A stretch of 64,000 nucleotides of DNA from assembly GCA_036172245.1 (NCBI GenBank), contig JAYWIR010000111.1, positions 1 to 64,000 on the forward strand. Reading direction: 5' to 3'. Positions 3,341 to 37,925 of this stretch are shown piece after piece. Positions within the stretch are counted from its first letter, which is position 1, and every line of letters starts with the position of its first letter. The notes beneath the pieces were generated by a model. It saw only the letters and a list, made by a program, of their open reading frames with translations, was not told the DNA's origin and searched no databases. A program made the position numbers and the translations under genes. Origin of the DNA: Raillietiella orientalis (taxonomy: Eukaryota).

Positions 3341-3344
3341 TAGG

Positions 3345-5497
3345 TTTTTCACTTGGGTGAGCCGGGACTTTTGTTATTAAAATTTTTCAAAATTAAAAAA
3401 AATTTCATAATTTAGTCTTGTTTTGTTTATTTTTTTGTTGTTCTTCTTGTTTTTAGTCGGGACGTATGGCTCGTCTGTATTGAGGCAGTTGTCCTTACGG
3501 ACCGGAAAGCCGATAAGGTCCTAAACAATGGTGATGGGGCGGGGAAAAACAAAAATACACAAAAAAAAAAGAAAACGGCTGGGGGGTAATGTTCTTCGGG
3601 AGGGAAAGGGAAGGGAAGGAATCACGGTACGCCGTGAGGAGGACTCTGCATCCGTTCACGAATGCGGACGTGTGCCTGCAAATGTTTTCCAAGTCGGCGC
3701 CGACGGCAGGCTTTCTCTAAGGAGATGGTTGCCCAGTGGATGGCATTCCGACTGGCATGTCCTCTCTTTGACGCGGTCCACTTGTCCAGTATTCCGCGTA
3801 TGCAACAGAGCACTGCTACACACCCGGAAGCTGGCAAGGCGTCCCGCATCAGGAGTAGAAATATGTTCTTCGGGTCGCCCCGCGGAATGGTGAAGATCGA
3901 CGAGAGTCGGTCCCTCATATCGCGAAGGGCAACGCACTCAATGTTCAAGTGAGGAAAGATTGCTCTTTCCCCACAGTCTGTGCAATTAGCTTCCACACTC
4001 CCCGGTGTCCAGTGAGACAAGCGCGCTCTGCCTAAGAGTCCCCGATGGAGCAGAAGCAACGCCGTCTCCTGCCACTGCAGGGAAAGGTTCCGTTATCCCA
4101 CGACGCCGGAGGCCACTTCCCCTCCTTCGGAGGTACTTCGAGCTGCGCGCCCCAGCGTGAAAGTCCATTCGGCGGGACACTCGGGGTACTAGCGTCGGCT
4201 AGTTCCCGGGACGTCCACGCCTTCAATAATTTTTTCTTGCCTCCGATGAGGCACGACACTTACCACGATGCCTCCTGCTGGGTGTCCACAACTTCCGTGA
4301 GGGAGGGCAGCACTGGGGCAAGGGGGGTAAAGGAGGCCCAAAGAAGCTTCCGTAAGCTGCTGACGAACTCCTGCAGTTGCTGAACAGCGTGCCTCCCTCT
4401 ACGGAGGAAGAAGTCCTCATCGCTGGAGTTGTTGATTTTAGCCCATGCGGAAACGGATTCCTGGAGCCAGATAGTCCAGTCCGCAGGGATGCAGAGATCC
4501 ACGGATTGTCTCTCAACAGGGTAACCAACTCTTGCAGCTGAAAACCACAGTAGTTTAGGCTGCGGTCGTTGGTTACTAGGATTGACGTCAATCCATGACA
4601 GCCGGTTTCCCTGTGAGCCAGAAGTCTTGAAGGTGCACACCAGGGTGCTGTCCAGTACTTTGCCACAAGGGCAAGTTTACGGAATCGAAGCTGTCGCTCC
4701 ATGCGCTCCAGCGTCAGGAGACGAAGTTCTCCGTGCCTGCGTGCATTGCACAGGTCTTTAAGACGGAAGCGGGGACTCCGATTGCCCCAGAGTGCTTTCT
4801 AATAAGTTTCCTTGTCATTTTACGAATTTGGTGAGGGGTGGGAATACTACAAGTAGGATGCGGAGGAAGGGGTTTGCAAAAGCGTCCCACACCGCGACCC
4901 CTTCCCGCAAGTAAAATTTGCCGTCTCGGAACAGGCCGATCGCCAAATCCACCTTTCCGAGACGGTCGAACAAGGCTTCTGCAGCGCACAAGTCCGCCAA
5001 CGGAACGCCCACGTACTTGAAGTATACGCTTGTCGGGGTCCCCAAGCGGCTCCAAGCCGACCGTTCTGCCAACGACGAGTCCGGAGAAATGATTGACGAC
5101 TTCCCCCTGTTTACCACTGAACCCGTCCCACGGTAAAGAAGCCCATAGAAATCTTCGAGCGCCGATGCCGGGGTGGACCCTGGAAGCAGAAGAAGGTCGT
5201 CGGCATGGGACGAAACGGCGGGCGTGACGGGATATGAGCTCGGCAGGGTTGCCAAAGACTCCCTGTATGCCCTCAGCACCAACTCAAAGTAGATGATGAA
5301 GAGAGGGGGATCAGGCTATCACCATGCCGGATGCCGCAACGACTCGGCACGCCGTGCACGTGCCGGCCGCTGAAATTGATGTTAATTAGCGCGAAGCGAA
5401 AGCAGGAGCGCAAGTAAGCCTGGAAGACGGCCGGAAATCGAAAGCGTTCCAGCAGCTCCAGGAGGAGCTCCTGGTCGACGCAATCGAAAGCTTTACG
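3345..5497 (-). mobile_element. 3' half of an L1/Tx1-like element (RT from K-A-F-D, C-terminal CCHC, 3' UTR, terminal hairpin)
   Basis: ORFs 4815..5282 (HADDLLLL) and 3622..4059 (CTDCGERAIFPHLNIEC). Terminal CCCGGCTCACCCAAGTGAAAAA at about 3345-3366. Broken at 5497 by element A. Confidence 0.88.
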
Positions 5498-6940
5498 TTG
5501 GTTAGAGTGGACGTGTTTCCTCGGTGCTCCTCGTGCCGGGAACCGTCCCTAGGTGTAGACTTCGTGTGTGCTGGTGGTCGATCAGGCAGCAATGCCTGAC
5601 ACGGGAAACAGTGCGTGTCAGGGGGCGTTGGCAACGTCGCCTTCTGAAGAAATTGAGTGCCAGTTGGCAGCAGCAACGTCGCCTCTAGAAAAGTTCGAAT
5701 GCCAGGGGGCGGCGGCAACGTCGCCTTTAGTGGCGAAGGAGGTGGGGGCGTCCGCCCAAACACAAACGGTCCACGCTGCAGCGCGGGCGTGGAGCGCTGT
5801 TGTGTCGCCGCCATCGACTGCATCCGCGGCGGATATGTCGGCCTATGTGGAGGAGGAATGTAACCCATCATTGTTCTACAAGGTAGGCAATCTATATTTT
5901 TTAGAAAGCGCTCGCGCCTTTTCGAAGGGGATGCGCGCTCTCGATGTTGAAGAGGAGGAGCTCTGAGCTAGAACCATTCGTAGCGGGGGGCAGTACGTAG
6001 AAGTGATCTGCAAACGCGCAGATCTGGCCCAACGTATGCTCAAAACCCCCGTGGTGATAAGGAGATGCAGGCTCCTTCCCATTGCGGCTGACCACAGTAT
6101 GGTGGTCCACCTTTTAGGAGTTACCGCGCGGATTCGCAAAGAACAGTTACGCGCCGCGTTAGACAAAGAAGGCACGGCACATGCAGTATGGACCAAGCCT
6201 AGTCCTTTCCAAAACTATACCACAGTTGAGTGCGCCTTCATAGCTGCCTGCATAACCTTTCGGGAGGGCTCTACCCTTCCCCACAAACTGGTGGTCGGCG
6301 AAGAAAGCGTCGACCTCTGGTACGTGGGGAAACCCAAATACGGTGGCTTCTGCAAAACGTCAAGACACCTCAAAGGAGGTGTTCCAACGTACAGTGCCAG
6401 GTACAGTGCCAACAACGGGCCAAACGAAAAAAATTTGCTCACAATCCGCTGTGCGCGTGGTTTCCGCGAGGAACTTAAAAAAACGCGCGCGGCTGCTACT
6501 CAAAAGGATGGCGGCGAAGGCTGCTCCTCAAGCTGTGCCAACCACACCCGTGGTTCAGGCCGCAGCCGACATTCCGGCAACGAATGCCGAAAAGATCGAC
6601 AAAATCGGTCAGGTGTCGGAATGGCAAGAAGTCACAGCGACAAAGAAAAAAAAGTCGAAGAAAGAACGACGAATTGAAAAAAAGCTCGCCTACCAAAATA
6701 AAAAACAGCAGGTTAGCGAGAATTTACAAGAATGCAGCGTCGTCGTAAAATGCGTCCCCGCTGAACGGCGCAAGGTAGAAATCGCTGCTAACGACGAGCA
6801 ATCCACTGTAGAAAATGTAAACAGCGTGGGGAGCGAACCGGCGGAAGCGTCCGTCATCGAGACCGTGATCGACGACGCCGCCTTCGAGCGTGCGGCGGAG
6901 GAGCTGGCTGCATCGTTGCAGCCAGAAACCTCCACGGCCA
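5498..6940 (+). mobile_element. Element A: 5' end and decayed ORF1, same subfamily as element C
   Basis: GGACGTGTTT at 5509. ORFs 5568..5966, 6003..6677 and 6343..7011 match the ORF1 of element C (AYVEE-x-CNPS-x-FYKVGNLY). Truncated by element B. Confidence 0.88.
5616..5741 (+). repeat. Three 42-bp tandem coding repeats (CQxAxATSP) in the ORF1 N-terminus
   Basis: Units start at 5616, 5658 and 5700 and share GCAACGTCGCCT. Confidence 0.8.
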
Positions 6941-7030
6941 GTTGGAGGACGTGTTTTTCCTTCAGTCCTCAAAGAGTAGTACGAAAGCGCTTTCTTGTGT
7001 GTGGTGTTTAGTGTACATCGTCGGTGTCCA

Positions 7031-8779
7031 ATGGCCACGACGCCAGAGGACACCGCGATGGAGGTGGGAGTGGGGGAGGCTAGTTCGCCCCCACAGCCTA
7101 CTGGAGCAGGGGCAGCCGCCCAGGAATCATCCCCGGCCACGCCGAGGACATGGAGCGCCATGGTGGCCGCGCCCAGCGCAGAAGCCATGGGGGAGATGGC
7201 CTCATACAAGGCCTCCGGGTACAAGCCATCGCTTGTCTACCAGGTAGGCAAATTGTTCGACGGCCGGACAGCGCGCGCCTTCAGAAAAGCGTTCATGGAC
7301 GCGAATATTAATGAGAAGGATCTGGACGGCCTCTCCGTCCTCAGCGGCGGGCAGCGGGTCGAGGTGCTCGGCAAAGATGTCACCTTGGCTCGCCTAATCC
7401 ATGCGCCGCTGAACGTAGACGGTCGCAAGATCCTGCCAGTATCAATGGACCGCTCCGTGGTGATCCACATGACTGGCATGACCAGCCGCATGACGCCGTC
7501 AGCGGTTGGTGAGGAATTGCGGAAATACGGTGAGGTGCACGCACTGTGGCCGAAACCCTCCATTTTCGACGGCTTCGATAGCCTTTTTGGTGGGCAGGCT
7601 GCAGCGCGGGTCACCGTAAGGGAGAATTGTGGGCTTCCCCACAAACTACAGGTGGCGCAAGAAAACGTCGACCTGTGGTATGTAGGGAAGCCCCGGTATT
7701 GCGGGCATTGTGATACCGTGGGACACCTACGTAAAAGGTGTCCCAATATACAATGCCATTTGTGCGGGGAGGGGGGCCAAGTTCGGCGTGTGTGCCCCAA
7801 ACGCCCCACCCCGGTTCCCCCTGACGCGAAAAAAGCGAAGGGGAAACGCGCTTCAAAGGTCTCTAGACCTAAAGTGGAAAAGGGCCAGCACAAGCAGCCA
7901 ACACCTCAACCTCCGGCGCGTAAGCCGGAGGATAAACCTTCTGAAACGGTGGAAGCCGAAGAGGGATGGCAGCTTGTAGAGGCCAGAAAACCAAGAAAAC
8001 TCCCACCCGCGGAGAGCAAAGAGCGCAAGACGGCCGGAAAGCCGAAAAAACCCGGACCGCGCACGAAAACTCTGCGGGAGTGCACGGTGGCACTAGAACG
8101 AATCGTCGTTCCCGAGATTGCCACCCGGAGCGTCGATGATCCCCTTGCCGTTTCTGCTGCGCCCGAGGCTCACGACGGCGAACCGTCTCTTTACAGAGAG
8201 GGTGAGCCGCGCGACATAGCGAGGGTCGAAGCCGCCGACGCCGCGTTCGCGCAGGCGGCGGAGGAGCTCGCGTTCACGCTGGCCGAGCGTGAGAACCCCT
8301 CGCGCAAGGCCGTGCGAAGGCCGGCTCCGGTAAAGTCGGCACCCACAGGTAAGTTAGACCTGGGGGCCGGAAGCACATCCTCCTCCTCGGAGGCACCCCC
8401 CCGGAAGTCGGGACGCAAGTCCCAGAAGCCCAGGAGGCGCCTCCCCTCCACCAGCGAGGAGGAGAAGACGGAAGCCGTCGCCAGCGTGGGAAATTCGGAG
8501 GAGGAATTCCCACGCTCGGAAGCCGTCGATGCGGCCATCCCCATGGAGGAGGGTGAACAGGGGGGTGAAGTCCCCCCTGCAGGCGCCGACCCTGAACAGC
8601 CCGCCCCCATGGAGGAGGGCGAACAGGTAGGCGCGACTCCACCTGCGGGTGATCCGGCCGACGCGCCGGCACCGATGGAGGAGGGGGACCAGGTGCCTTC
8701 AGCACCTGACCCCTCTCGTCCACCTAGCGTCCCGCCCCACCAGGTGGCGGACGCCGCACTGCCATCTTCGCAGGAGTAA
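7031..8779 (+). CDS. ORF1 (gag-like nucleic-acid-binding protein, CCHC zinc knuckles), open, 582 aa
   Basis: ATG at 7031, knuckles CGHCDTVGHLRKRC and CHLCGEGGQVRRVC, acidic Pro-rich C-terminal repeats, and TAA at 8777-8779 overlapping the ORF2 start position. Confidence 0.88.
   Translation: MATTPEDTAMEVGVGEASSPPQPTGAGAAAQESSPATPRTWSAMVAAPSAEAMGEMASYKASGYKPSLVYQVGKLFDGRTARAFRKAFMDANINEKDLDGLSVLSGGQRVEVLGKDVTLARLIHAPLNVDGRKILPVSMDRSVVIHMTGMTSRMTPSAVGEELRKYGEVHALWPKPSIFDGFDSLFGGQAAARVTVRENCGLPHKLQVAQENVDLWYVGKPRYCGHCDTVGHLRKRCPNIQCHLCGEGGQVRRVCPKRPTPVPPDAKKAKGKRASKVSRPKVEKGQHKQPTPQPPARKPEDKPSETVEAEEGWQLVEARKPRKLPPAESKERKTAGKPKKPGPRTKTLRECTVALERIVVPEIATRSVDDPLAVSAAPEAHDGEPSLYREGEPRDIARVEAADAAFAQAAEELAFTLAERENPSRKAVRRPAPVKSAPTGKLDLGAGSTSSSSEAPPRKSGRKSQKPRRRLPSTSEEEKTEAVASVGNSEEEFPRSEAVDAAIPMEEGEQGGEVPPAGADPEQPAPMEEGEQVGATPPAGDPADAPAPMEEGDQVPSAPDPSRPPSVPPHQVADAALPSSQE
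8541..8710 (+). repeat. 66-bp tandem coding repeat (PMEEGEQ...), about 3 units, in the ORF1 C-terminus
   Basis: ATGGAGGAGGG at 8543, 8609 and 8675. Related arrays near 26215-26375 and 44310-44460. Confidence 0.85.
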
Positions 8780-9147
8780 CACCTGGGCTCGCCAGTCGCC
8801 GTCGGATTCGCGCCGCCAGTTGGAATGTCAACGGGCTCCGCGACGACGGTAACAGGCGATATACAGCCGACACCCTGCAAGAGTTCGACCTGGCCCTGTT
8901 GCAGGAGTTCCACGTGATCACCGCGGCAGACGTCCAGGAGATCGAGACGATCGCGGGGGGTCGTCTGTACTGGCAATGCGGCATCCGCAACACCTGCGGG
9001 GTCGCGTTCTTCGTGAAGCCGGCCATCGACGCTGCCGTGAAGGGCGTGCGCATCGATGACGACGGTCGGGTCGGTCAGCTGACTCTCATCTAGTCCGACT
9101 CGATCGATCTTATCGTCACGAATGTGTACGCCCCAACCAGTCAAAAG

Positions 9148-9559
9148 TGCGGAATAGTGGCGGCTTGGAACGCCACCAGAAGAAGGCGTCAGCCAACCGG
9201 CAACGCCTTACACTGGACTCGCGTTTTCGTGCGAAGTGTCTGCAAGTGGCGCCACTTGAGCGCTGAAAGGACTCAGCTTGTGGGGATCCTGAAAAGGATC
9301 TAGGGGACCTCTCCACGCGCACCGTGATATCTTCCCCGCCCTCCCAACCCTACAACATTTGTTCCCCCCTACATTAAAACTTTTTGTTTCTTTTTGTTTT
9401 TCTTTATTTCCCATCCCCGCGCATCGGAAGGACCTCTCCGGCACGGAGCCGGTAACCAGCAAGCTGTTTTGGAGTGGTGAACCTTCGGGTTCGCCACGCG
9501 ACATTTTCTCTGTTATTTTATTTCTAAGAAATAAATGCCCCGGCACATCCGGGTGTGAA
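9148..9559 (+). mobile_element. 5'-truncated copy (ORF2 end plus 3' UTR) inserted in the APE domain of element B
   Basis: Near-identical to the reverse complement of about 29087-29495. Flanked by CAACCAGTCAAAAG (9134-9147) and CAAGCAGTCAAAAG (9560-9573). Confidence 0.92.
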
Positions 9560-9751
9560 CAAGCAGTCAAAAGGGATACAGCAACCGTACCAGGCTGCTT
9601 GTATCCCTGAAGCGCGACTGGCTGGCGAACACGAGCGTGCGGAAGGCTCACCTGATAGCGGAAGATTTCAATGGAGTGCGGACGTGTTTTTCTTCGCTCT
9701 AGTCTCCGTGCTTTCATCCGCTTCATCTTGGCGTCGTACATTTTGACGACG

Positions 9752-11674
9752 ATGTCGACCCAACTTGAAGCTACTGAAGTTGGAGGAACAGCATCCGGAT
9801 CTGCAATCGCGGAACCGACGGCCGCATCCACTTCGTCTTTCTCGCCAATGGAGAGGAGTTTTGCTGACGTTGCTGCCACAGCAGCCGTCAATGGGAAACC
9901 ACTCGACGAGTCGGAGTTGCGGGCATAGGTAGCCCAAGGCTATTGACCTGCTCTCCGATATAAGGTGAGTGGTTTTCTTTCTGCGCGCGACGGGAATCAG
10001 TTCAACGATGAACTGACCCGTGTTGGCGTGCGGGAGGAAGACCTTCTCGCCATTATGCCCGTACAAGACATGGGCTATTTCAAGGTGCGTTGCAAAGACG
10101 CTGCACTTGTGCAACGCTTGCTGCGCACCCCGTTGTCGATCCGTGGCCAGAAGGTCTTCCCGGCCGCCATGGACGACTCATTTGTGGCGGAGATTTTCGA
10201 CATCGAGTCGGAAATCTCCGATACTGATATTCGGAACGCGTTGGCGAAATTCGCCACGGTCCATGCGCTGTGGAGGGTGCGTAGCAACCTCAAGGACTTC
10301 CCGTCCATACACAGCGGAGTCGCTGGAGTCCGGCTTACAATGCCGGACCGCCGTCTGCTGCCCATCAAACTACAGGTGAAAGACACGGTCGTTCACCTGT
10401 GGTTCGTTTGGAAAGTAAGAACGTGCGAGCAATCCGGGAAGGAGGGGCATTGTTTGGATAAATGCCCCTCTGGAAAATGCCGTTATTGCAAACTATCCGG
10501 GCACCAATTAAAAATTTGCCAGGATCTTTTGCGAAAAAAGGCAGCCGCGGAGCTCCATTTTAAAAAACAAAGCGCGGATAAAAAGAAAAAATCTGCGAAA
10601 ATCCTGGAGACCCCACGGCAGAAATTCCGAAAAATCGCGAGGCGGAATGTCGCCCCAAAGCAGCAGGAAACCTCGCAGGCGAAGCCCTGCGCGCCCCCTC
10701 TCGCGGCAGAGGAGCCGCAAAAGAAAGGGTGCGGGGAATCCGGGGCAATGGTAAGTCCCCCTAGGTGCAATAGCTGTCCTTCCCAAGCACGCCCGGCTCT
10801 TTCGGACTTCGAGCAACCGGCGGGGATGCCAATGGACAACGGCGGTAAGGACACTTCCAGTACCGTCAGATCCATTCCTTCACCTCCTGCAGTGGCTGCG
10901 AAGCCCAAATCGGGTAAGAAGGGTTGTGCCGTGTCGACTTCGGAAGTCGGCAAAAAAAAATCCGCGTCGCGATCCAACACCGCGAAAGCGGAGAAAAATC
11001 TCACGCCGTCGCAGTCGGAGAGCAAGCTCTCGACTGGCGCGGATGCCATGCCAACGAAGGGATTAAAAGCCCTTCCGAAGGCAGCGTCCATGACGAGCGT
11101 GGCGGAGCCATCGAAAGTGCTCCCGTCCAAAGACGCGGATGGCTTCAAAGATGGCCATGGAGCACAATCTCCATTTACGGCGCCACGCGAAGTGAGGAAC
11201 CGTATTGAAGTAAAGAAGACTTCAGCAAAGGTCCCTCGTGCAACTGCGCGTGAGCACGCTGAAAACGCGCGCGCCGGGAAAGCAGCCGTCACCAAAAGCG
11301 ATCCTCTGGTGACGGAAAACGACAACAAGACAGCTGTCAATCCAGCAGAACCTGTCACTGCTTGGCTGAAGGCCGAAACCCGATCGAACATGCGCCGGTC
11401 GGACTCCGAAATGGATGCCGTTCCGATCACCGAGACGAGGACAACTCGTTCGAAAGCGTGTGCGCGCCGATCAAAAGTAGGCAGCCAGGCAACGCTCGCC
11501 GCGAAGCAACGCGAAGTCTCCACGAAACCCGACGGGGTTCATCCTGGCGTGGAGGCATTACATGCATGCAGCACGACAGAGGACGGTGGCGACCGTCCCC
11601 TCCAGCCAGTCGAGCTGCTCGCCGTCTGCTCGCCGGATAAAGCGAGCAAAAAGCTGCCACCTTCCCAGCAGTAA
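9752..11674 (+). pseudogene. ORF1 of element I (two in-frame stops near 9926 and 9944)
   Basis: ORFs 9671..9928 and 9965..11674 are in the same frame. Knuckles CEQSGKEGHCLDKC and CRYCKLSGHQLKIC. Confidence 0.87.
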
Positions 11675-14600
11675 TGCGGGCAATCGCGTCTTCTCGTCGT
11701 CTGTCCGTAACGTGTTGGAACGTGAACGGACTGCAGAACGACGAGAAGAGGCGATTAGTAGCCAACGCCCTGCGCCCCTTCGACCTCGCGTTGCTGCAGG
11801 AGATTCACGTAATCTCCGACGAGCAGGCAGCCGAAATCGAGGAGCGCGCAGGCGGAACGCTACATTGGCGGTGCGGCGGCGCACACACGTGCGGCGTCGC
11901 GTTCCTCTTAAGAGGAAAAATGGCGGAAGCGGTGCGTAGTGTTCGTTTCGATGACAACGGACGGATAGGCCAGCTTGTCATCAAGTGGTCCGAGTCCATC
12001 GATCTCGTCGTTACGAACGTCTACGCGCCGAGTGGCTCTCGCTACCTCGAAGAAAGAGTAGCTTTCTTTGGTGAGGTGCAGAGCCACTGGCTCAACAACT
12101 CCGGTTTTCAAGTGGCGCACCTCGTCGCTGGGGACTTCAACGTCCGCCTGCTCTCCGACGATTGGAGCCGCCCGAGGGAGCGCGCGCTGCCCATCGAGAT
12201 GTGCGCATCCGTGCACGCCGCCAACTTGATGGTCAGCGAACCTGGAATGGAAAGATCGCTCGATCACGTTTTCCTCGATGAAAACCTGCATTCGCGTGTG
12301 GGTAGGTGAGGAAGATTGTTGACTGAGCTTTCTGACCACCACAGGTTGGAGTTTGAGATCCTTCCGCCAGGCAGGGGGCCTCCGTTGCAAAGCTGGAGGA
12401 TGCAGGCGGATTGGCTTAGCCAACCGGAGGCTGCGGAGCATCTACGTGGATACCTCCGAGGCTTTGCCATTCAAGAACTTGCGGACTGGGACGATCTCAA
12501 AAGATCTGTCCGCGAGTTGTGTTGCCAATTCCCCTTGCACCGGCTTCCACGCGGTTTCGGAGAGGGCGTGGCCAACAGTAGAGACTTTCTGCAGGCCCGC
12601 ACGTTTTCGAGACGCGCGGATGTCGGGCGTCTCGCAGAGTACAAGGCGAGGGCCGAGCGCCAGGTCTGGCAGTCCGGAGCAGCATGCCTGTTGGACGACA
12701 AGGGCCAGGAATGTTGGGCCCCAGCCGGAGTACGCCGCATTGTGAGACGCTACAACTCCTCGCTCTACGCGGAATCCCCGACGGAGGATATTCTTTCTAA
12801 GATACTCCTGTCTCAGGATGCTCGTGTTGTCGGCGAGGAGGAACGCGAACGTCTCGACGAGCCCTTCACAGCGGATGAATTTTCGTCCGCCATCGCTGGG
12901 CTGAAGAGACGAAAGGCGCCAGGCGAGGATGTGCTCCCTGCAGAGTTTTATCAGTGCTTTGCAGTATAGCTCATTCCCTTGATGCTTAAACTCGCGACGC
13001 TGATGACTGAATCCGGGAATGTCCCTGATTCCTTCCGCTCAGCGAAGGTGCGTCTCCTGCCGAAAGGCGGAGACTTGCGCCAACTTAACAACTGGCGTCC
13101 GATCACCTTGGTGAACTCGGACGTCAAGTTGTTTTCCAAGCTGTGGGTCGCGCGGTTAAAAAGAATCGCGGAATCTGTGGTGAGCCCGGAACAAACCTAC
13201 GCGGTTCCGGGACGATCCATGGAGGCGAACATCCTTTTCGCGCGTACATGGATGCAGCTGCAGGAAGTTGTGGCGCAGCAAAGCCAGGCTGCTGCGAAAG
13301 TCACTGCCGCAGGCAAAAAGAACAGGCGCCGACGGCAGGAGGGAATGCCAGGTGCCTTGGCGGTCGCGGTCGATCTCCACAAGGCGTTCGACTGCGTAAA
13401 CCAGAAGCTGCTTTTAAAGCTTATGGAACGCCTTGGGTTCCCGGCGCAACTCCTGCTGTATTTGCGCGCGTGCTGGCGCCACGCGCTAGCCTGCATCACT
13501 TTTAGCGGCTGCCGCGTGTATGGTATTCCCGTTCGTAGGGGCATCCGACAGGGCGACAGCTTAAGCCCGTTGCTCTTTAACATCTTCTTTGAGTTGGTGC
13601 TAAGAGCATACAGGCTGACGCTGTCTCACTTGCCAAGCTCCTGCCCGGGAACGCCTGCCGTGGCCGCCTACGCTGATGACCTGCTTCTTCTGCTCCCCAT
13701 GTCCACCCCGGCGTCCAGTGTCGAGGATTTCTTCGACCTGATTCGTTGGGGAGCGGGCGTGAGCGTGAACAGAGAGAAGAGCGTGGTCGTTCCTGTGGGT
13801 ACGTCGTGGGAGGGGCAGTCCGACTGGATCCGCCTGGGGATCCCCACGGGCGGGTACTTTAAGTACCTTGGCATTCCGTTGGGCGCTTTCGGCGCAGCCG
13901 AAGCGTGGGCGGACTGTCTTCAGAAAGCAGAGTTGGCCATCAGCCCGTTCTTTAACGGCAAGTTTACCTTGCAGGAACGGGCGACTATTTGGAACACCTT
14001 TGTGGCCCCCCTCCTCCGTCCCCTGTTTTTTGTTTTGGACCCCCCCTATGCGGCAAAACAGCGGGCTAAACGCCTGCTCAGGAACGCTCTCTGGGGTCCG
14101 GCGAGATCCAGGATCCGCCTTAAAGATTTGTCAGCTCCGCGTCGGGATGCTGGTTTGGGTATCCTGACAATGGAGCGAATCGGACTGCAGGTGCAGTTCC
14201 GACTGCTGGCACTGTGTGCCCAGCTATGGACATCCCCCCTGTGTGTGCCAGCTCGCATTTTCCTGCGGAGATGCGCCGGCAGCGGAGGATTTCTCTCGCT
14301 TTTGCCAGGCACTCAATACAGGAAGCGGGGTTTCGGTTTTCCATTGCGGCAGTTGACCGCACTTCTGGAAGCACACTCTTGGATCTCCTGCCGCCCAATG
14401 AACTTTGAAGCTTGGCGGCAGGAGTCTGTTGAATCCTGGGCGGCGTTCCAAGGAATACGCTTTGAAGATCTTCGCCCCCTGCGCCAATTTTTTCCACGAT
14501 CCTTGGAAGAAGTACTGCAGGACGAGGTGAAGTTTTCTACCCTGGCTGCCACGCCTCTTGCCGCAGCGCTGTCTGTACTCAGGGCAAGAAACGACAGTTA

Positions 14601-15267
14601 TCAACCGGCGAGGTGGGAGGTTTCCTGCACGATAGCGGGAAGAACCAAAGTCCTTGGCACCTGGAAGATAATTGAGTTGGCGGACGCCGCCACTCCTCGT
14701 GTTACTGCAAAGGGACTCCTCCGGTGGGCAGAAGAACTTGCTGTCACCCCCGAAGAACTTGTAGTCCCTCCACAGTGTATGGACAGTTCGCTGCTCCCCC
14801 TTGCTTCGAAAGAAGCCGTGCTGCTTTTCGTTCACTGGGGTTTTCAGTGCAACGAGCGTTGGCATCGTGACTCCGGGGGACTTGCGTCTGCGAACTGCGT
14901 TCAATGCGGATCGACTGAGTCGATTCCGCACCTACTTCTGGACTGCGGTGTCCTACAAAGACTGTGGCGTAGGCTGGCATCAGCACTATTGCATCCCGTG
15001 GACACCGCAAGAGACTTGCTGCGACGATTCTTCACGCCGAGCGGGCTTTCACTAAGCGCAAGGATTGCAACCATCGGTTGCATACGCGCGATAGTTTCCG
15101 TCCGCCAGGCGTTGGTAATCAACGGACAGCACCAAGAGGTAATCAGCAAAGCATCCTTCTACATGGGAGCATCCGCTAGATGGCCTCATTTGACAGAGGA
15201 GACAAAAAGGAATCTCGCCGCAATACACCGCCGGTTTACACACCCTCAGCAGCGGCCAACCCGGTGA
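11674..15267 (+). pseudogene. ORF2 of element I: APE endonuclease, RT and CCHC finger, about 1197 codons with two in-frame stops (12307, 12967)
   Basis: WNVNG, LQE, NVYAP, GDFN, LDH and SDH (APE); NWRPITL, DLHKAFD, RQGDSLSP, YADD and YLG (RT); CVQCGSTESIPHLLLDC. Confidence 0.93.
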
Positions 15268-16832
15268 TCATTGCCCTACCCTCCATAAACTAATTTTGTA
15301 TTTTCTTTTTACACCCGCGTCCCCATAGGCTCCGGAACATTTGAGGTGCTCATCGTTTAAATCCCCGTGAGTACGGAGCCTAACCAAAAACCCTTTTCCC
15401 TTCCCTCCAGTTTTTGATTTTTGTTTGTTTCCCCTCATTCCCTCCACGCTGCGAGCGGTTTGTTTACCAGGCCTGCGTGCCGGTAATTTTTCTATGTTCT
15501 CTGTCGTTCTGTTGGTTGGGGACATTGTCCCTCACCAGTTTATTATTATTAATAAACGCCCCGGCGTGACCGGGTGATAAATTTCAATCTCCGCCTGCTA
15601 ACAGGGGAGCCAGAAACACAAGAGAACGCGATGAACGAGTTGTGCGAAGCCATGCGTGCGCGCAACTTTTTCGCGGGTGAGAAAGGAATGGTCCGCAGCA
15701 TCGACCACGTCTTCCTGGACGCTGACCTGTGTTCACGCGTCGGCAAACGGGGGAGGGTTGTGTCGACGTTGTCGGACCATTCCCGGCTAATTTTCGAGAT
15801 GCGGCCTCGCGACAAAGGACCGCCATCCAGGGATTGGCGTCTGCCGGGGGACTGGACGCGACTCTCAGGTGCGAAGGAACACCTTCGCGAATACCTGAGA
15901 GGCGTCACGCTCCGGAATCTCCAGGACTGGGACCTTTTTAAGGACTCGGTCCGCGAGTTCTGTGAGCAGTTCCCCCTGGATCGCCTGCCCCCCGGTTTCG
16001 GCGAGGGTGCTCGCAACCATCGGGCCTATTTACAGGCTCGTAGGTACGAAAGAACCCCTAATGTCCGTCGCCTGGCCGAGTACCGCGCCGGGGCCGAAAG
16101 CCAAGCCTGGCAATAAGGGTCGGCCAGCTTGCTGGACGACCAGGGCCGGGAATGTTCGTCCCCGGCGTCGGTACGGCATCTCGTGCGGAGTTTTTATTCC
16201 TCCTTTTACGCCAGGGAGCCCCCGGATCGAAACGCCTCTCGACGCTTGCTTCCGGATGGCACCCCGGCAATAGGGGAGGAGGAGGTGGAAAGCCTCGACG
16301 AGCCTTTTACCTCTGGCGAAATTCTTGCCGGTATCAAAAGGCTCAAGAGGCGTAAAGCTCCAGGGGAGGAAGGCTTGCCCGCGGAGTTCTTTCAGAGCTT
16401 CGCGGAAGAGCTGGCTCCCCTGCTGCTTAAGTTAATCAGGCTGATCCTAGACAAAGGCGATGTTCCCGCCTCGTTTCGATCAGCCAGAGTGAGGCTCCTT
16501 CCGAAAGAGGGAGACCTCAGGAATTTAAAGAACTGGCGTCCGATCACGATTGTGAATACGGACGCCAAGTTGATAGCAGGGCTATGGGCTTCGCGTCTGG
16601 GGCAGTTTGCAGAATCCGTAATTAGCCCGGAGCAGACTTATGCTGTTCGCGGGCGAAGTATGGATGCCAACCTCTTCTTCGCAAGCACATGGGTGCACCT
16701 GCAGAGAAAAGAAAAGAAAGGGATAGGGAAAGTCGGCAACCCCACATGGGGGCCGCCAGCCGGGCTGGGAAGGGACCCCCGGGCAGGGAAGGGCGCCCTA
16801 GCGCTCGCAGTTGATCTCCACAAGGCGTTCGA

Positions 16833-19800
16833 TTTTCACCCGGATTTTGCCGGGGCGTTTATAGTAAAACAAACTTTTACGAAGACGTGCGGTGGCGGGA
16901 CCATTGCTCCAGCCACGCACGAAGAAACACAGAGCCTGCCGGGTCACCGGTTCGCAGAACGGTACGGTCCACCACGGCAGCAGGGGGAAGAAGGAAAAAC
17001 AAAAAAAACAAAACAAAAAAGAAAAAGAAAAGTTGGGAGTGTAAGGGAAGGGATCACAGTTGCTGCTGGGGCCGATGCATCCTTTGCAGGATGCCGGCAA
17101 GCCTCTTCTGTATTCCTGGATCCATGTGGGGCCATCGGGACGACCTCCTTAGGAACTGGGAGGCTGGCTGGATGGCACCCTGGTCGCGTTGTCCTCCCGT
17201 AGCCTTGCTCCAAGCGGTGACGATCCCGCGTAGGCAGCACAAAGCTGCTAACGAGGCCGCTGGCCGAAGGGGGTCGGCAACGAAGAGGGCTTTCAGTGCG
17301 TCCCTGGGTTTGCCGCAGGGGATTCCGATGGCCGCGGCAAAGCGAAACCAAAGGGGCCGAAGGGCAACACAATCCACTAGCAGGTGGGGGGGGACTCCCG
17401 TTCCCCACACCTCACGCAATTGGGGTCCACCGCTCCCCAGGTCCAGTGGTGTCGGCGGGCGTTGCAGGGGAGTCCCCAGTGCTGCAACAGGAGAGCCGAC
17501 TCCTGCCATTTTAAGGTGAGGGCGGAAGTGTCCATGAGCACCGGGGGCCACTTCAGATGTTCAATGGGAACATCGAGCAGCGCGCCTCAGCGCAGAAGTC
17601 CATTGGGAGGCGTACTCGGGGTCGCAGCGTCTGTTAACTGGCCCGTCTTCCACTCTCCTATCTTCTTCTTTTTTTCGGAGATTGTTACTGTAACCACCCA
17701 CTTCGCCGCAACAGCGCTTTCCAGATCATCCATCAGGGAGGGCAGCGCAGCAGCGAGGGGGGTTCTTCCTGCCCACGCTCTTTTCTTTAGATCCTCCAGG
17801 ATCTCGCGGACCGTGCAACTTCTGTAACCCCCAAACAGCAACCTTCGTTCCTGTTGGGAGCGTTGCATGCCGAACTGTCCCCACGTTCGAACGGTTTCCT
17901 GCAACCAGGCACTACCGTTAAACGGGCAACAGGTGAGCAATCCTGGGTTTTTCCGATACAGCGCAGCCCCCTCCGTAGCTGGAGTCCGCATCGGTTAACG
18001 CGGCGACGGAGTGCAACAAACGACGTCAGTCCCGTCTTGCCGGTGGCTTGCTGGAGAAGGAGACGTGCAGGGACGCACCAACAGGTGCACCACATCTCCG
18101 GCACAAGTGCCAAAATCCGGAACTGGAGCTGCAGCTCCAACCACTCCAATGTCAGGAGGCCGAGACCAGCGTCCCGACGCGGAGCGCACAAGTCTTTTAA
18201 GCGGAATCGGGCCCTCCCGTTGCCCGAAAGGCCGATACGGAGGAGGTCCTTTGTCCGCTTTTTAATCCTCTCTGGGGGGGAACAAACAAAAAGCAATGAG
18301 CGGAGGAGAAAAGCCGCGAACGTGTTCCAAACCGCGGCCCGTTCAGGCAGGAAAAACCTGCCGCCTCGGAACGGGCCGATCGCCGTCTCTGCTTTTTGAT
18401 GGCAGCCGGACCACGTTTCCGTAGGGGAGTAGTCTTCCAACGGCACACCAAGGTACTTGAAGTACCTCAACGTGGGGATCCCCAAACGGACTCAGTCTTG
18501 CTGCCCTGCCCACGCCGCACCAACTGGCATCACGGACGACTTCGCCCTGTTCACCGTAAGTCCGGTTCCCCGATGCAGCAGGTCGAAGAACTCCTCGACC
18601 GCCGCAGCCGGGGTGGACATAGGAAGCAGCAGCAGAAGGTCGTCCGCGTATGCTGAAACGGCCGGCGTACCGGCACAGTCGTGCTGCAGGTGCGCCAGAG
18701 TTCCCCTGTACGCTCTCAGTACCAACTCAAAGTAGGTACTGGAGAACAAGGGGCTCAGGATGTCTCCCTGCCGGATCCCACGCCGTGCACGGTCTGCCAG
18801 CTGAAAGTAACATTGATGAGCGCGTCGCGCCAGCAGGAGCGCAGATAGGCCACTAACGAGGCCGGGAAGCCCAAGCGTTCCAGAAGCTCCAGAAGGAGAT
18901 TCTGGTCGACGCAATCGAATGCTTCTCGCAAGTCGATTGCGACCGCAAGGGCTCCCTCCACCACCCGACCATCCAAACCCTTGCCGGCGCACGCACCGGA
19001 ATTCCGGCTGCGCACCAAGCTCCTTTGATGTTGGAGCTCTAGCCAGGTGGAAGCGTGGAACAGCATATGTCTGTTCCGGGCTGATGAAGATGTTGGCAAC
19101 CCGTCCCAGATGCTCTGTCCAAACCTTAGTCACCAACTTAGTGTCCGCATTCACTATTGTGATGGGACGCCAGCTGTTTATGCTCCTCAGATCTCCTCCC
19201 TTAGGAAGGAGCCGCACCTTTGCCGAACAAAACGAGGCGGGAACGTCACCTGTTTCGCGTATCAACAAGGTGAGTTCCCGTACCAGGGGATTAAGCTCAG
19301 CCGCGAAAGTTTGGTAAAACTCCGCGGTCAGGCCGTCCTCCCCTGGAGCCTTCCGCCTCTTGAGCTTTCCGATGGCCGAGAGGATCTCGTCCATCGTGAA
19401 AGGCTCCTCGAGGGTCTTTCTCTGCTCCTCCCCGATCGCTGGAGCGCCTTCCGGAAGCAGGAGTCGTGAGACGTTCCTCTCCGGAGGTGCCCTGGCATAC
19501 AGGGAGGAGTAGTAACTCCGCAGCAGGCCGAGGATTTGCGCAGGTGCCGAGTGCTCCTGGCCCTGATCGTCCAGTAAGCTGGCCGATCCGGACTGCCAGG
19601 CTTGCCTCTCGGCTCCCGCTTTGTATTCCGCCAGCTTGCGGATGTCGGGGGTCCTGGCGTAACGACGGGTCTGCAGGTAGGCTCGTTCTTTACGGACCCC
19701 GGTCCCAAAACCCGTAGGTAGGCGGTGCAGAGGGAACTGGTCGCAGAACTCCTAGACCGACCGCTTGAAGCGGTCCCAATCCTGGAGTGTCCGCAGCCTG

Positions 19801-22360
19801 AAGCTCCGTATGAACGTGCGGAGATGTTCGGCCGCGTCCAGGAGCTTCAGCCAGTCCCCTGGGAGACGCCACGCTGACGAGGGGGGGCCCCTGTCGCGCG
19901 GATGGATCTCGAGGACTAGCGGGCGATGGTCGGACAGCTCGCACGGTAACTTGCCGCGCCTGCCCACGCGAGGGCACAGGTGCTCGTCAAGAAACACGTG
20001 GTCAATGCTGTCTTCCATCCCCGGTGCACTGGCCAACAGATAACAGGTGTGCACCGCCATGCACACCTCGTTGACCAGGTCACGCTCGGGATTCTGCTCA
20101 TCTGGTTTCAGGCGAACGTTGAAATCGCCTGCAACCAGATGGGCATTCCGCACGCCTGCTTCGGTCAGCCAGTCTCGCCGTAGGGCAAGGAAAAACTCTT
20201 TCCTCGCCCTCCTGTTCATGAGGTCCTTGCCGCTTGGTGCGTACACGTTCGTGACGATCAGATCGATCGAGTCAGACCACCTGAGAGTCAGCTGGCCGAC
20301 ACGACCGTGATCGTCGAACCGCACGCCCCGAGCCGCGGCCTCGACGGCTGGCCGAAGCAGGTAGGCGACACCGCAACTTTTCGCTCTCCCACACCTGTAC
20401 CATAGCCGCCCTCCGGAGATCCGTTCGATCTCTTGCGCTTGTTCTGCAGAGACCACGTGGATCTCCTGCAGCAGCGCAAGGTCGTAGGACTCGAGAAGGG
20501 CGGCCATGTCTCGTCTCTTGCCGGCGTCTGTCATGCCGTTCACGTTCCAAACGGCGATGCGCAGACGACGGCGGAAGGAGATTCCCGGCATTACTGCTGG
20601 GAAGATTAAGGTGTGGGGGAGCCCTCCTCTTGCGAGGCGGGCGGGATGTCCATGGAGGTTTCGGCCTTCTCAGGCACCTGAGGCACCTGTTCGGCCTCCA
20701 CCCCCTCCATCCCCTCCGTGTCCGTGCGTGAAAGTCTCTCAGGCGACGGGTCCCGAGAGTTTCCCACGCTCATGGCACCCTCGCTTGCGGAAGCCATCTC
20801 TTACCCTTCGACGGGGGAGACGAGCTTCCTTGGCTTTGTGGACTTACGTCCAGCCTTCTTGCGCGGTGCCGTAGAAACGGAGGCTGCGCTTCCGGCCTCC
20901 ACCTCGGGGTCGGAAGTGGGGGACTCCTGAGGGGAGGCCGGACGCCTTACGGCCTTCTTGCCAGCCTTGGAGGGTTCTGGCTGCAACGAGGCTGCCAGCT
21001 CCTCCGCGGCTCGCGCGAAGGCTACGTCATCGATGGTGGTGTCGATGACGGACGCCGCCGCCCGCTCGCTTCCCTCGCTGTTGACTGTGTCAACAGAGGG
21101 GAGGTCGTCGGTAGCGGCGAGTTCTTTCCGGCAGCGTTCGGCAACATCGAGAACGCGTTCGACAACGACGCTGCACTCTTTAATTATCGCGCTACCCTGC
21201 ACTTTCTTCTTCTGTTGGCAGGCGATTTTCTTTTCCATCGTCCTCTCCTTCTTTGATTTTTTTGCCGTTGCCACTTGCCACCCAGTCTCCTAGCCGGCTC
21301 CCTCAACTTTTTCGGCGTTGCTCGCCGGGGTCTCGGGTGGGGCCTGGGTCTTGGGCGCGGGTGGCACAGCCTTCGCGGCAGCTTTCGTCGCCAGTCTTTT
21401 CTGCAGAAGCCGGGCGCGCTTTTTAAGGTTTCTCTTGGAAACCACCCGCACTGCTGCTTTTGGGCACACCTCCCTCGTGTGGCCCATTGTGCCGCATACT
21501 TGGCACTGCACATTGGTACACCTCTTTTTGAGGTGGCCCGACGTTTTGCAGAAGCCACAGTATTTCGGCTTCCACACATACCAGAGGTCGACGGTTTCGC
21601 CTTCGACCACCAGTTTGTGGGGAAAAGTGTAGCCCTCCCGAACGGTCACGCGCGCAGCAGTGAGGCCGTGTTGCAGCCCCGTGTAGTCCTCGGAAGGACT
21701 TACTTTCGTCCACTGCGCGTGTACCGTTCCAAACTGTTCCAAAGCGGCGCGAACCTGTTCTTTGCGCATTCGCGCGGTCACGCCTAACAGGTGGACCACC
21801 ATGCTGCGGTCCGCCGTAGTGGGGAGTAGCCTGCGCGTCCCCATCACAACGGGGGTTTTAAGCAGTGGTTGGGCCAGCTCTGCTTGTTTCAGATGACCTC
21901 AACGTACTGACCCCCGCTGCGGATGGTCATAGCGCTGAGCTCCTCCTCTTTCACATCGAGAGCGCGCATGCCCTTCGAGAAGGCGAGCGCGCTCTATAAA
22001 GAATATAAATTGCCTACCTTGTAGAAAAATGAGGGGTTGCACCCCTCCTCCACATAGGCCGACAATTCCGCCGCGGCTGCAGGCGATGGCGCCGACACAA
22101 CGGCGCTCCACGCCCGCGCTGCAACGGGGACCGATTCTGTGGGGGCGGATGCCCCCACTTCCATCGCCTCTGGGGACGACGTTGCCGCCGCCCCCTGGCT
22201 CTCCATCGACTCTGAGGGCGGCGTTGCCGCTGCCCCCAGGCCATCCCTGGTGGTCGCGTCAGGCCTCGCTGCCTGATCGACCACCGAACCACACGACGCT
22301 TGCACTGGGGTAGACTTCCTGGCACGAGGAGCACCGAGAAAACACGTCCACCCTGGAGCG
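16833..22360 (-). mobile_element. Element C: full-length 5.5-kb element inserted antisense in the RT of element B, with 14-bp TSD
   Basis: CACAAGGCGTTCGA at 16819-16832 and 22361-22374. ORF1 remnants span about 22290-20591. ORF2 runs 20591-17054 with stops and frameshifts (APE 19752..20591, RT 18492..19394 with YADD). Confidence 0.93.
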
Positions 22361-22374
22361 CACAAGGCGTTCGA

Positions 22375-24259
22375 CTGTGTAGACCAGGAACTCCTCTTGG
22401 AGCTCCTGGGTCGCATGGGCTTCCCACCCTCCCTGATTTCCTACCTGCGCTCTTGCTGGCGGAATGCGATGATTACCGTCTGTTTCAGTGGGCAGAAGGT
22501 GTATGGCGTGCCGGTGCACCGGGGCATAAGGCAGGGCGATAGCCTCAGCCCCCTTCTCTTTAGCACCTACATTGAGTTGGTGCTGAGAGCGTACAGGGTG
22601 ACTTTGGCCCCCTTGCCGAGCTCGTGCCCCGGCACGCCCGCCGTAGCAGCGTACGCCGACGATCTTCTGCTCTTGTTGCCAATGTCCACCCCGGCGAAGG
22701 CGGTCGGAGACTTCTTCGATCTGCTCAGCCGCGGGACCGGACTACAGGTTAACAGGGCGAAGTCGTCGGTTGTGCCAATAGCTGCGGCGTGGGCAGGGCA
22801 GCAGGACTGGGTCCGTCTGGGGATCCCCAAGGCGAGGTGCTTCAAGTACCTTGGTGTGCCGTTGGGGGACTACTCAACTGCGGAAGCGTGGTCCAGCTGC
22901 CTCCAAAAAGTCGAGACGGCGATCGGCCCGTTCCTGGAAGGCAAGTTTCACTTGCCGGAACGGGCCGCGGTTTGGAACGTTTTCGCGGCCCCCATCCTCC
23001 TCCCTTTACTTTTTATTTGCCCTCCCACCGTGGAATCCAAGAAGAGGACGAAGGACCTCCTCCGTATCGCCCTTTGGGGCCAAGGGAGGCCCCGAGTCCC
23101 ACTGAAGGACTTGTGCGCTCCGCGTCGGGACGGCGGTCTTGGCCTCGTGACGCTGGAGCGCGTGGAGAAGCAGCTGCGGTGGCGAACCCTCGCCATCGCA
23201 GCGAAGATGTGGTGCACCCCTTGGTGCACTCCAGCCCGCCTCCTGGCCAGCCGTGTGTCCCGGTGCGATGGACTCGCGTCTTTTCTTCTCAGCCGTGGCC
23301 GGAAGATGCGAAGATGCGGCCTACTGCTCGGGCGCATGGCAACATTGGCCAAGGAGAACAGCTGGATGGTTTGCTGCCCCTCCAACTCCCCCGCCTTGCT
23401 GGAAGAGAATATTGAAACGTGGGCAGCGGTTAACCAGAGGAGCCACGAAACGTGGAGTCGTCTCCGATGCAGCCCCTACGCCCGATGCACGCTGCGGAAT
23501 CACCTGGAGATTCCAGCAAGATGCACGTGGGCAGAGACGACATGCCTAGCTACGGTGCTGCTTTTACTGAGGAGGGCACTTCACAGCAGGCGGACGCCAA
23601 GGTGGCAAGTCTCCTGCTGCATCCAGGGACGCGAAAAGTTGATCAGCGGCTGGACAACAGGAGAACTGGCAGACGCCACGACCCGGAGCGTCCAGCCGCG
23701 AGGACTAAAAAGATGGGGCTAGCTGCTGGCCATCCCTGTGGATGTGATGAAGTGGCCCCCGATTCTTCAGGAATCCAGGATCCTGCCCCTTAAGTGGAAA
23801 GAGTCGGCGTTGCTGTTGTTGCATTGGGGTTTACCCTGCAACGCACGAAGCTCTCACTGGTCAATTGGAGTTGGAGATCCTGCGTGTGTCAGGTGCGGAG
23901 AGCGCTAATTGCTCTCACACTTTATTGTGGACTGTGCCGCCCTTGGTATCCTTTGGGAACGGTTTGGGACGATCCTCGGTCTACCTACGGGCAGTTTTCC
24001 TAGAGACGTTCTTCGGCCCCTCTTCGTGAAGGACGCCCTGCAGCTAGCCGCAGCCCTTGCAGCCTTGTGCTGCGTCCGAGGCATCGTGGCGGCATGGAGT
24101 GACGCCAGTAACGAAGGAGTGGGTCAACACGCGAGGGATGTGATCCCATATGCCCAACGCTTTTTGCGGAGAGCTGCTGGATGGCCCCAACTGGGGAATA
24201 TACAGATGGACCTCGAGGGCTTCCTTCAACGGATGGGTCCTCCTCTTAGCGGACAGTGA
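22375..24259 (+). pseudogene. Distal RT and C-terminal part of the element B ORF2
   Basis: ORF 22397..23722 (RQGDSLSP, YADD) continues past stops to the TGA at 24257-24259. Confidence 0.9.
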
Positions 24260-24482
24260 TCCCTTCCCTGCCCCCCAACCTCATTTGTTTGTTTGCATTT
24301 TTGTTATTTTTTTGTTTTTCTCCATCATCTTTCGCTGCCGGGGAGTTCCACGTCGGGCTGCGTCCCGGCGTCCCGGTAGGTCATGTGCATTAGGCCGTGA
24401 GCGGGGCCTGGTACCGCGATTGTAGAGTTATTTTATAAATAAACGCCCCGGGCGTACTTGGGTGGCAACGTTAAATCCCCGC

Positions 24483-27400: not shown

Positions 27401-27707
27401 ATGGCCCCATCTAGGAAAGCTGAAAATGGAACTAGAAGGCATCCTGCAAAGAATGGGCGCTCCCAGCAGTTTTCTGTGATCCCTTCCCGGCCCTCCAAAC
27501 TTTTTTTTTTGTGGTTTGTTTCTCTCTTTTATTTTATTTTTGTTTTTTCCCTCATCCCCCTCCACTGCCGAGGAGTGCCACACCGGGCTGCGTCCCGGTG
27601 TCCCGGCAGTTCCGTTATCCCGTGGCCGTCAGTGGGGCCTTGTACCACGTTTTGTATTGACCGTTGAAATGTTTTTAATAAACTTCCCGGCGTATCCGGG
27701 TGGCATC
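24483..27707 (+). mobile_element. Element D: internally deleted or chimeric element (ORF1 joined to the ORF2 C-terminus, no APE or RT)
   Basis: ORF1 runs from ATG 24582 (ORF 24914..26242, two knuckles). Junction near 26431, then ORF 26421..27479 with CARCGERESLPHLLVEC, and the hairpin at 27686-27700. Confidence 0.87.
25796..25960 (+). repeat. Three 57-bp tandem coding repeats (DAALDKVAE-x-PAAT)
   Basis: Units start at 25796, 25853 and 25910. Confidence 0.85.
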
Positions 27708-37597: not shown

Positions 37598-37925
37598 GTT
37601 TGCCACCCGGATATGCCGGGGCATTTATTACTCTAATTTTTTACAAAAATTAGATAATAAAGTCTTTCAAAAGTTAATTGTGGGAAACACTTGGTTTTCC
37701 CACCTTGGTTGACGTGTCTGTTGCCGGTGCATAGACCGGTTAGGTCCATTCCCGAGGCGCATGGTTAGGGAAAACTAGAACAAAAACGAACAAAAAGAGA
37801 GATAACTGAAAGGGAAACAGTTATATGTGGACAAGGGGGGGCAGGGAAGGGATCACTGGGCGCCTGGGTCGGTCCTCTGCATTCTGTTGAGGATGCAGTC
37901 AAGTTCAGTTTTTATTTTCAGTGGT
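37598..37925 (-). mobile_element. Short 3' fragment (last ORF2 codons, 3' UTR, hairpin) head-to-tail with element E
   Basis: LNRMQRTDPGAQ then TGATCCCTTCCC; terminal AATAAATGCCCCGGCATATCCGGGTGGCAAAC. Confidence 0.85.

Follow-up and report, generated by a model that had tools for sequence, protein, structure and literature searches.

Where one long interspersed nuclear element (LINE) lies inside another, it may be asked whether the newcomer was directed to its site by sequence or arrived there by chance. The question is raised by a stretch of 64,000 nucleotides from Raillietiella orientalis (NCBI GenBank assembly GCA_036172245.1, contig JAYWIR010000111.1, positions 1 to 64,000 of the forward strand), here called the window, within which all counts of elements and junctions given below were made. 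From position 1 to ~53,800 the window is a closed nest of non-LTR retrotransposons (LTR, long terminal repeat), and two of them, termed A and C, each lie antisense to a resident LINE and adjoin the same nucleotide in the K-A-F-D codons of its reverse transcriptase (RT). We consider it fairly probable that the lineage of A and C is a sequence-specific LINE of the apurinic/apyrimidinic endonuclease (APE) type, which integrates by target-primed reverse transcription into the second open reading frame (ORF2) of resident sibling LINEs. That insertion is directed by sequence, is antisense and falls in conserved ORF2 codons is well supported within the window, and a second lineage shows the same.

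Two antisense insertions at the K-A-F-D codons

The elements of the nest are APE-type non-LTR retrotransposons with an L1-like ORF2, in which an N-terminal AP-endonuclease is followed by the RT. Self-BLAST, together with tblastn using the intact 1125-amino-acid ORF2 of element T1 as query, resolves the nest into ~20 element pieces on both strands. The T1 ORF2 (29342-32719, minus strand) is the sole intact 1125-amino-acid ORF2 in the window; Pfam detects RVT_1 and zf-RVT in it, and Exo_endo_phos (6e-14) and RVT_1 in C. The features on which the argument turns are as follows, the K-A-F-D position being referred to as site 1 and TSD denoting a target site duplication.

3343-5497, minus strand: host A, the 3' part of a T-lineage LINE found by tblastn (ORF2 reference amino acids 507-1125 plus the 3' untranslated region, UTR)
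5484-5497, minus strand: target 14-mer of host A, CGTAAAGCTTTCGA (R-K-A-F-D), adjoining the 5' end of A
5498-6941, plus strand: element A, a 1.44-kb 5' stump; the 5' end of H cuts this A/C-lineage LINE short
6942-24469, plus strand: H, a full-length LINE in the pieces 6942-9147, 9565-9672, 15581-16832 and 22361-24469
16819-16832, plus strand: first TSD copy of C, CACAAGGCGTTCGA, in the H-K-A-F-D codons of H
16833-22360, minus strand: element C, a full-length A/C-lineage LINE of 5528 bp, antisense in H
22361-22374, plus strand: second TSD copy of C, an exact repeat of the first
42701-48393, plus strand: H', an uninterrupted relative of H with an empty site 1 (46226-46239), itself antisense in LINE N/L at ORF2 site 2

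The insertion of C is documented from both sides. The exact 14-bp TSD reported in the preliminary description does flank it, and the DNA on either side forms the two halves of one plus-strand ORF2 (…A-V-D-L-H-K-A-F / D-C-V-D-Q-E-L…), with Pfam RVT_1 positions 2-62 to the left of C and 76-204 to the right. Beside C, H is colinear with the uninterrupted H' (15581-16832 corresponds to 44991-46239, and 22361-23860 to 46226-47724), and the overlap of these matches is exactly the 14-mer, present in single copy in H' at 46226-46239. C itself opens with 11 nt and GGACGTG, continues through a broken ORF1, APE and RT, and carries the 3' hairpin CCCCGGCAAAATCCGGGTGAAAA; it ends with the hairpin common to the nest plus GTGAAAA. 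Its ORF2 is split over five tblastn pieces, which indicates that this copy has decayed.

At host A the break falls in the same codons: the minus strand continues after the 14-mer as D-C-V-D-Q-E-L, and on the other side of the joint A begins with 11 nt and GGACGTG, followed by a 5' UTR and then by ORF1, of which the N-terminal part is present. The homologous 14-mer of a different host, the identical spacing of 11 nt between 14-mer and GGACGTG (5509 on the plus strand, 22349 on the minus strand) and the antisense orientation of both inserts, all noted earlier, were recovered. Differing 3' ends of the two hosts had also been noted, and indeed the 3' UTR of host A ends …GTGAAAAACCT and in comparison with H reads …CCAAGTGAAAAACCT, while that of H reads …TTGGGTGGCAAC. 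From GGACGTG onward A aligns with C 22360-20964 at 76% identity (1050 of 1379 aligned bases), and the homology stops at 6941, where the 5' end of H begins. The two inserts had been assigned to one subfamily; at 76% identity they form one lineage and not one tight subfamily. In addition, although both junctions are present as described, what had been called element A is the 1.44-kb stump, and what had been called host C is H, which starts at 6942 inside A. The 5' UTR of A also carries, at 5624-5665, an extra 42-nt copy of a GGCAACGTCGCC-containing unit that is missing from C.

It had further been proposed that the site lies next to a catalytic Asp and that insertion destroys the host RT. The insertion does split the RT, between RVT_1 positions ~62 and 76 in the case of H; the Asp divided by the nick is, however, the second D of the motif, and the metal-binding Asp of RT motif A is the D of V-D-L, five codons upstream.

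A fuzzy search of the window finds only two A/C-type 5' ends (GGACGTGTTTYCTCGGTGC…) and one A/C 3' end, all at this site. Independent copies at the same nucleotide in one orientation, the pattern by which a target-specific LINE is recognised, are thus found here with n=2. Empty site 1 sequences occur in H' (which has the 14-mer once), L, G, T1, T2, M, C and E1, so that two of the 11 site-1 copies in the window are occupied.

Could the junction of host A and A be no insertion site at all, and instead the edge of a 5'-truncated copy or of a rearrangement that lies head to head with A and matches the site of C by chance? We judge this distinctly improbable, since the break is at the homologous nucleotide, with the same orientation and the same 11-nt offset to GGACGTG, and a random second match at one of the ~10 site copies, at the right base and on the right strand of 53 kb, has odds of ~1e-4. 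The window does contain other rearranged joints (E1/F at 1755; J/J3 at 26440, with a palindrome; H without a TSD), and nowhere in it can a TSD, the A 3' end and host A's upstream half be shown side by side. A candidate for that missing half is nevertheless at hand in K (27707-28406, minus strand), which holds amino acids 1-236 of a T-lineage ORF2, is broken at site 2 (…GGTTTCGGCG^), where another element, J3, cuts it with its 3' end, and has a branch length similar to that of host A. K may be the missing 5' half of host A, parted from it by later insertions and a deletion.

Several observations weigh against target-specific insertion by the A/C lineage and are collected here. There are just two events, and with nine of the 11 site-1 copies unoccupied the site is used far below saturation. 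The stretch of 11 nt preceding GGACGTG is identical at just 4 of 11 positions between A and C, and neither the 3' end of A, nor a second TSD copy, nor the upstream half of host A is recognisable in the window. A third copy of the lineage, E1 (1-1755, plus strand), consists of the RT part, is 83% identical to C 19162-17465 and is the sister of C in the RT tree (100/100); as it lacks both ends, it is uninformative on the target. A target logo for the lineage gains no copies from the collections scanned beyond the window: exact-pattern scans gave 0 matches for the A/C 5' 29-mer in metagenome contigs. Finally, positions 4500-23500 were compared with a public sequencing run, X1, at 80% likeness (contigs only, 0.21 of the words), and among the matches listed there was no joint or loose end at 16832, 22361 or 5497. 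Contigs of the same run do join 9139 to 9566 and 9664 to 15581, that is, across two other insertions in H. Joints leading from 5494 to RT positions of C and G resemble cross-matches of uninterrupted RTs like that of host A, and were not used as evidence.

Independence of the two insertions

There is INDEPENDENCE of two events: the insertions of A and C are independent. The preliminary description had argued as much from the sequences of the hosts, and had set against it a single event that was later duplicated. Such an event, in which one ancestral insertion gave a composite of host and insert that was afterwards copied by segmental duplication or by retrotransposition in trans, might be suspected from the fact that one BLAST alignment spans both junctions (4686-6938 against 23178-20964, 71.7%) and from the nearly equal synonymous divergence (dS) of the host pair, 0.85, and the insert pair, 0.81. 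It is nevertheless scarcely credible, and four lines of evidence, taken together, in effect exclude it.

The first is the host phylogeny. A maximum-likelihood tree was built from the codon-aligned RT sequence downstream of the site (627 columns from 10 copies); it unites host A with T1 and T2 (97/96) and places H together with L, H', C and E1 (96/95). A topology constrained to hold the two hosts as one clade costs 64.7 log-likelihood units and is rejected by the approximately unbiased (AU) test (p-AU 2e-5), so the host tree contradicts a single duplicated event. The second is that T1 and T2, and L and H', are closer to the respective hosts than the hosts are to each other and are uninterrupted at the site, which means that a single insertion would need several precise losses.

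The third concerns the manner in which the sequences diverged. The ratio of nonsynonymous to synonymous divergence (dN/dS) is 0.34 between host A and H, and 0.29 over 231 codons of ORF1 between A and C, the latter computed from four ungapped blocks of at least 60 nt that lie wholly within 5830-6945, with the blocks 5666-6010 and 6760-6950 left out. Values of ~0.3 for both pairs imply that most of the divergence arose while the elements were coding, under purifying selection. A host RT that had been dead since a shared insertion should drift at ~1, as is seen for the recent duplicates T1 and T2 (dN/dS 1.2, on very few changes), and the 0.34 of the hosts therefore speaks against a shared insertion.

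The fourth is the nesting order. H is inserted into ORF1 of A: its start at 6942-6947 is a new 5' end (TTGGA followed by GGACGTG, the latter at 6947), and its 3' hairpin is at 24464. A is interrupted by H and H in turn by C, which gives the succession host A, A, H, C; with H sitting inside A, the pair of H and C cannot be a copy of the pair of host A and A. The course of H can be followed through its interruptions, three in all, by colinearity with H' 42703-47724 in four blocks (6946-9134, 9569-9672, 15581-16832 and 22361-23860). The third interruption is C; the other two are sense insertions:

9148-9564, plus strand: T fragment, a 417-bp 5'-truncated T-lineage element in the APE region of H, sense, with the 9-bp TSD AGTCAAAAG and 96% identical to the T1 and T2 3' ends
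9673-15580, plus strand: G, a full-length LINE of another lineage inside H, sense, with the 8-bp TSD ATTTCAAT

Recognised sequence, proposed mechanism and a second lineage

Two independent events establish that insertion is directed by sequence; they do not establish the length that is recognised, and the 8-nt GCNTTCGA fits as well as a long site. The pentamer TTCGA occurs 121 times in the cluster, on both strands together, and if it alone were recognised the two events would coincide with a chance of ~8% (about 1 in 12). The octamer GCNTTCGA occurs 24 times, 11 of them at site-1 copies (including the duplicated TSD), which raises the chance of coincidence to ~40%, and full-length elements carry 1 to 3 such octamers, both strands together. 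A preference for 8 nt would reach the RT motif about 4 times in 10 without any 'knowledge' of RT, which is a further point against homing to RT genes as such. It is conceivable, accordingly, that the lineage has a loose preference for a short motif (TTCGA up to GCNTTCGA), comparable with that of L1 for TTTT/AA, and that the RT motif is merely its commonest carrier in a LINE-rich region. The many empty site-1 copies, and the use by a second lineage of two ORF2 sites that share just a short core, would suit such a preference. We regard it as rather unlikely, because the two events agree to the nucleotide both in the first-strand position and in the 5' junction that lies 14 nt upstream, which fits precise cutting of both strands as in strictly site-specific LINEs, and because the pentamer by itself would produce the coincidence only about once in 12.

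Returning to target-specific integration, the findings that are shown, namely the junctions, the independence and orientation of the two events, the TSD of C and the sites left empty in relatives, would fit the following sequence of steps. The endonuclease would nick the host sense strand at 5'-GCNTTCGA^, within the K-A-F-D codons of RT motif A, and the freed 3' hydroxyl would prime copying of the element RNA from its 3' hairpin and short tail (…CCGGGTGAAAA). In the case of C the primer strand would be the host sense strand …AAGGCGTTCGA-3'OH, and the complementary DNA would start with the complement of …GGGTGAAAA. Cutting of the other strand 14 nt upstream would generate the 14-bp duplication, and the new copy would come to lie antisense to its host and split the host RT. 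The strand that is nicked first, the recognised length and the role of the endonuclease, rather than of RNA pairing, in reading the site are what we infer. By eye there is no base pairing of the element 3' tail with the target (the AAAA tail of C faces …TTCGA and the GGCAT tail faces …AATG, with no bases in common); specificity is for this reason attributed to the protein, by analogy with the R1 and Tx1 clades (PMC4640811). The target is among the most conserved stretches in every LINE of the cluster, including the RT of the A/C lineage itself, so that each insertion would carry a new target and the nest would grow.

The second lineage consists of elements with the 3' tail GGGTGGCA(T/AC/AAC), all five of which abut the sense strand of an antisense host at a GNTTY…G^ core. 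J3 is one of them, and its 3' end cuts K; the five junctions fall at two sites.

26449-27706, plus strand: J3
27707 (joint 27698-27716), site 2: J3 into K, host strand …CCAGGTTTCGGCG^
48394 (joint 48385-48403), site 2: H' into N, host strand …GGGGATTTAATG^
24470-24493 (joint 24460-24493), site 2: H into a 23-nt remnant, host strand …GGGGATTTAAC^
53453 (joint 53443-53461), site 3: X, host strand …CTGGCGTTTCCAT^
near 37590 (37584-37608), site 3: Q into a 33-nt remnant, host strand …TTGCGTTTCCG^

Site 2 lies where the APE domain ends, in the P-x-G-F-G codons, for which intact elements read GGCTTCGGTG^AG, and site 3 to the R-F-D codons at reference amino acid ~33, where T1 reads CGGTTCGACG^GG. The hosts K and N are of different lineages, and a joint clade of the two is rejected (p-AU 9e-14). 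The rest of the host entered by H' (L) adjoins the 5' end of H' a further 5-6 nt along. Colinearity of the flank of X is with the beginning of ORF2 in G and H, and the short spacer at Q shares GCGTTTCC with the flank of the X junction. Two assignments were considered and dropped. Element O (51634-52638, minus strand) had seemed a further site-2 case, as tblastn with T1 began at codon 238; queries with C and H' show that O runs past the site. The 3' flank of X had been considered as site 2, and its colinearity with the G and H ORF2 start gives reference amino acid ~33, that is, site 3. For the T, G and host-A/S lineages no recurrent site was seen among the few junctions available in the window.

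All three sites encode x-Phe-Asp/Gly with a TTCG core, so the specificities of the two lineages may be related yet offset: the nick of the A/C lineage follows TTC by 2 nt, and that of the GGGTGGCA-tailed lineage follows the T run by 3-5 nt. Head-to-tail pairs of LINEs with spacers of 7-33 nt are also present, at 3343 (host A/F), 24470-24493 (H/J), 37566-37597 (Q/T2) and 32731-32740 (T2/T1). The host remnants in the H/J and Q/T2 pairs would be the expected leftovers of repeat insertion into a site regenerated by the TSD, and renewed hits on such regenerated sites may explain the head-to-tail pairs of the nest in general.

The nest and its known counterparts

Target-specific LINEs are known for ribosomal DNA (rDNA), small nuclear RNA and transfer RNA genes, telomeres, microsatellites and a few transposons. 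Examples are Tx1L, which inserts into the Tx1D transposon, and R1, which inserts into 28S rDNA. The A/C lineage resembles the Tx1 and R1 clades in combining APE and RT, in inserting with constant orientation at a single nucleotide of a target that is repeated, and in its short TSD; in systems of that type the target is multicopy, and insertions consequently do little harm. It differs from them in that the target is RT coding sequence of sibling LINEs, possibly of its own family (for the second lineage, APE-proximal ORF2 motifs), on two events plus five. The human and mammalian L1 endonuclease is an APE that nicks at TTTT/AA, with target-primed reverse transcription and TSDs of ~7-20 bp. L1 sites are degenerate and genome-wide, whereas the insertions described here share the exact nucleotide in homologous coding motifs and all lie antisense. 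One paper (PMC4640811) documents target-specific APE LINEs with transposons among their targets, and a second (PMC3747384) likewise records transposon targets. Among the papers listed by a limited full-text literature search there was none in which a LINE homes to the motif that encodes the RT of other LINEs.

A further likeness is to the Zepp and ZeppL nests of the green algae Coccomyxa and Chlamydomonas, whose LINEs insert into existing copies (PMC8226300; PMC3446292). Those too are LINE-in-LINE nests that are GC-rich relative to their flanks; the nest described here is at least 53 kb in size and has 52-61% GC (mostly 55-61%), and the flanking DNA to its right has 40-49% GC and no recognisable genes. 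The portions of the Zepp and ZeppL descriptions consulted contain no nucleotide-level target. The 3' ends are also different: that of Zepp is poly(A), whereas here a hairpin is followed by a tail of 4-12 nt such as GTGAAAA or GTGGCAAC. No Zepp or algal protein was among the 43 database matches of the protein search, in which the closest protein, from a metagenome, is 64% identical, the remaining matches are at most 35% identical and the best named ones only 24-32%.

A wider interpretation, tentative and somewhat less likely than not, is that the nest houses a guild of LINE lineages, each tuned to a different x-Phe-Asp/Gly stretch (…TTCGA^ or …TTYGRYG^) of sibling ORF2 and each killing the endonuclease or RT genes of the others. 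Such hyperparasitism among retrotransposons would by itself build a LINE-only, perhaps centromere-like, island and keep the elements confined to it, and would also supply a nucleotide rule for clusters of the Zepp type. A LINE directed to the sequence that encodes catalytic motifs in other LINEs would represent a new kind of safe harbour, in which the target is renewed by each insertion, the cell bears no cost and a competitor is disabled. It would offer a simple mechanism by which Zepp-like families grow as closed nests, maybe serving as centromeres, and natural APE endonucleases with defined targets of 8-14 nt would become available for study.

The elements display the hallmarks of LINEs, namely a fixed 3' end, variable 5' truncation (the T fragment, J3, X and Q are truncated copies) and TSDs, which measure 14 bp for C, 9 bp for the T fragment and 8 bp for G. 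A 5' start, GGACGTGTT, is common to all lineages (5509, 6947, 9680 and 42704, and 22349 on the minus strand), and at the 3' end each has AATAAAYGCCCCGGC-N4-CCGGGTG followed by a short tail of its own, poly(A) being absent. The hairpin, common to nine element ends, is a stem-loop CCCGG-N-CCGGG downstream of AATAAA (e.g., 15550-15580 and 16833-16863), and exact-pattern scans for it gave 0 matches in metagenome, genome and viral contigs. The shared 5' start and the 3' stem-loop lacking poly(A) resemble those of 'stringent' LINEs, in which the RT recognises the 3' structure.

Outside the nest, no Pfam family scored above the cut-off in 14 ORFs of the flanking DNA. The low-GC DNA there contains an inverted repeat of 2.4 kb (56460-58826 and 61629-64000, 93.8% identical), in the frames of which no Pfam families were found.

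Within the nest, a short minus-strand LINE 3' fragment, R (47735-48127), lies antisense near the ORF2 end of H'. Its hairpin resembles that of G, its tail is GTGAAAAC and its insertion point is no recurrent site. E1 lacks its last ~630 bp and at 1750-1755 meets a minus-strand ORF1 piece, F (3252-1750), which also lacks its 3' part; this joint is a deletion or rearrangement joint, not an insertion site. T1 and T2 form a tandem pair (29082-32735 and 32731-36381), 97.4% identical and with one intact ORF2, and the T lineage may be the youngest of the nest. A palindrome, CCTAGCGTCC…GGACGCTAGG, occupies 26400-26440, exactly at the joint of the ORF1 piece J and the unrelated ORF2 3' piece J3, and may be the scar of a foldback repair or of a deletion.

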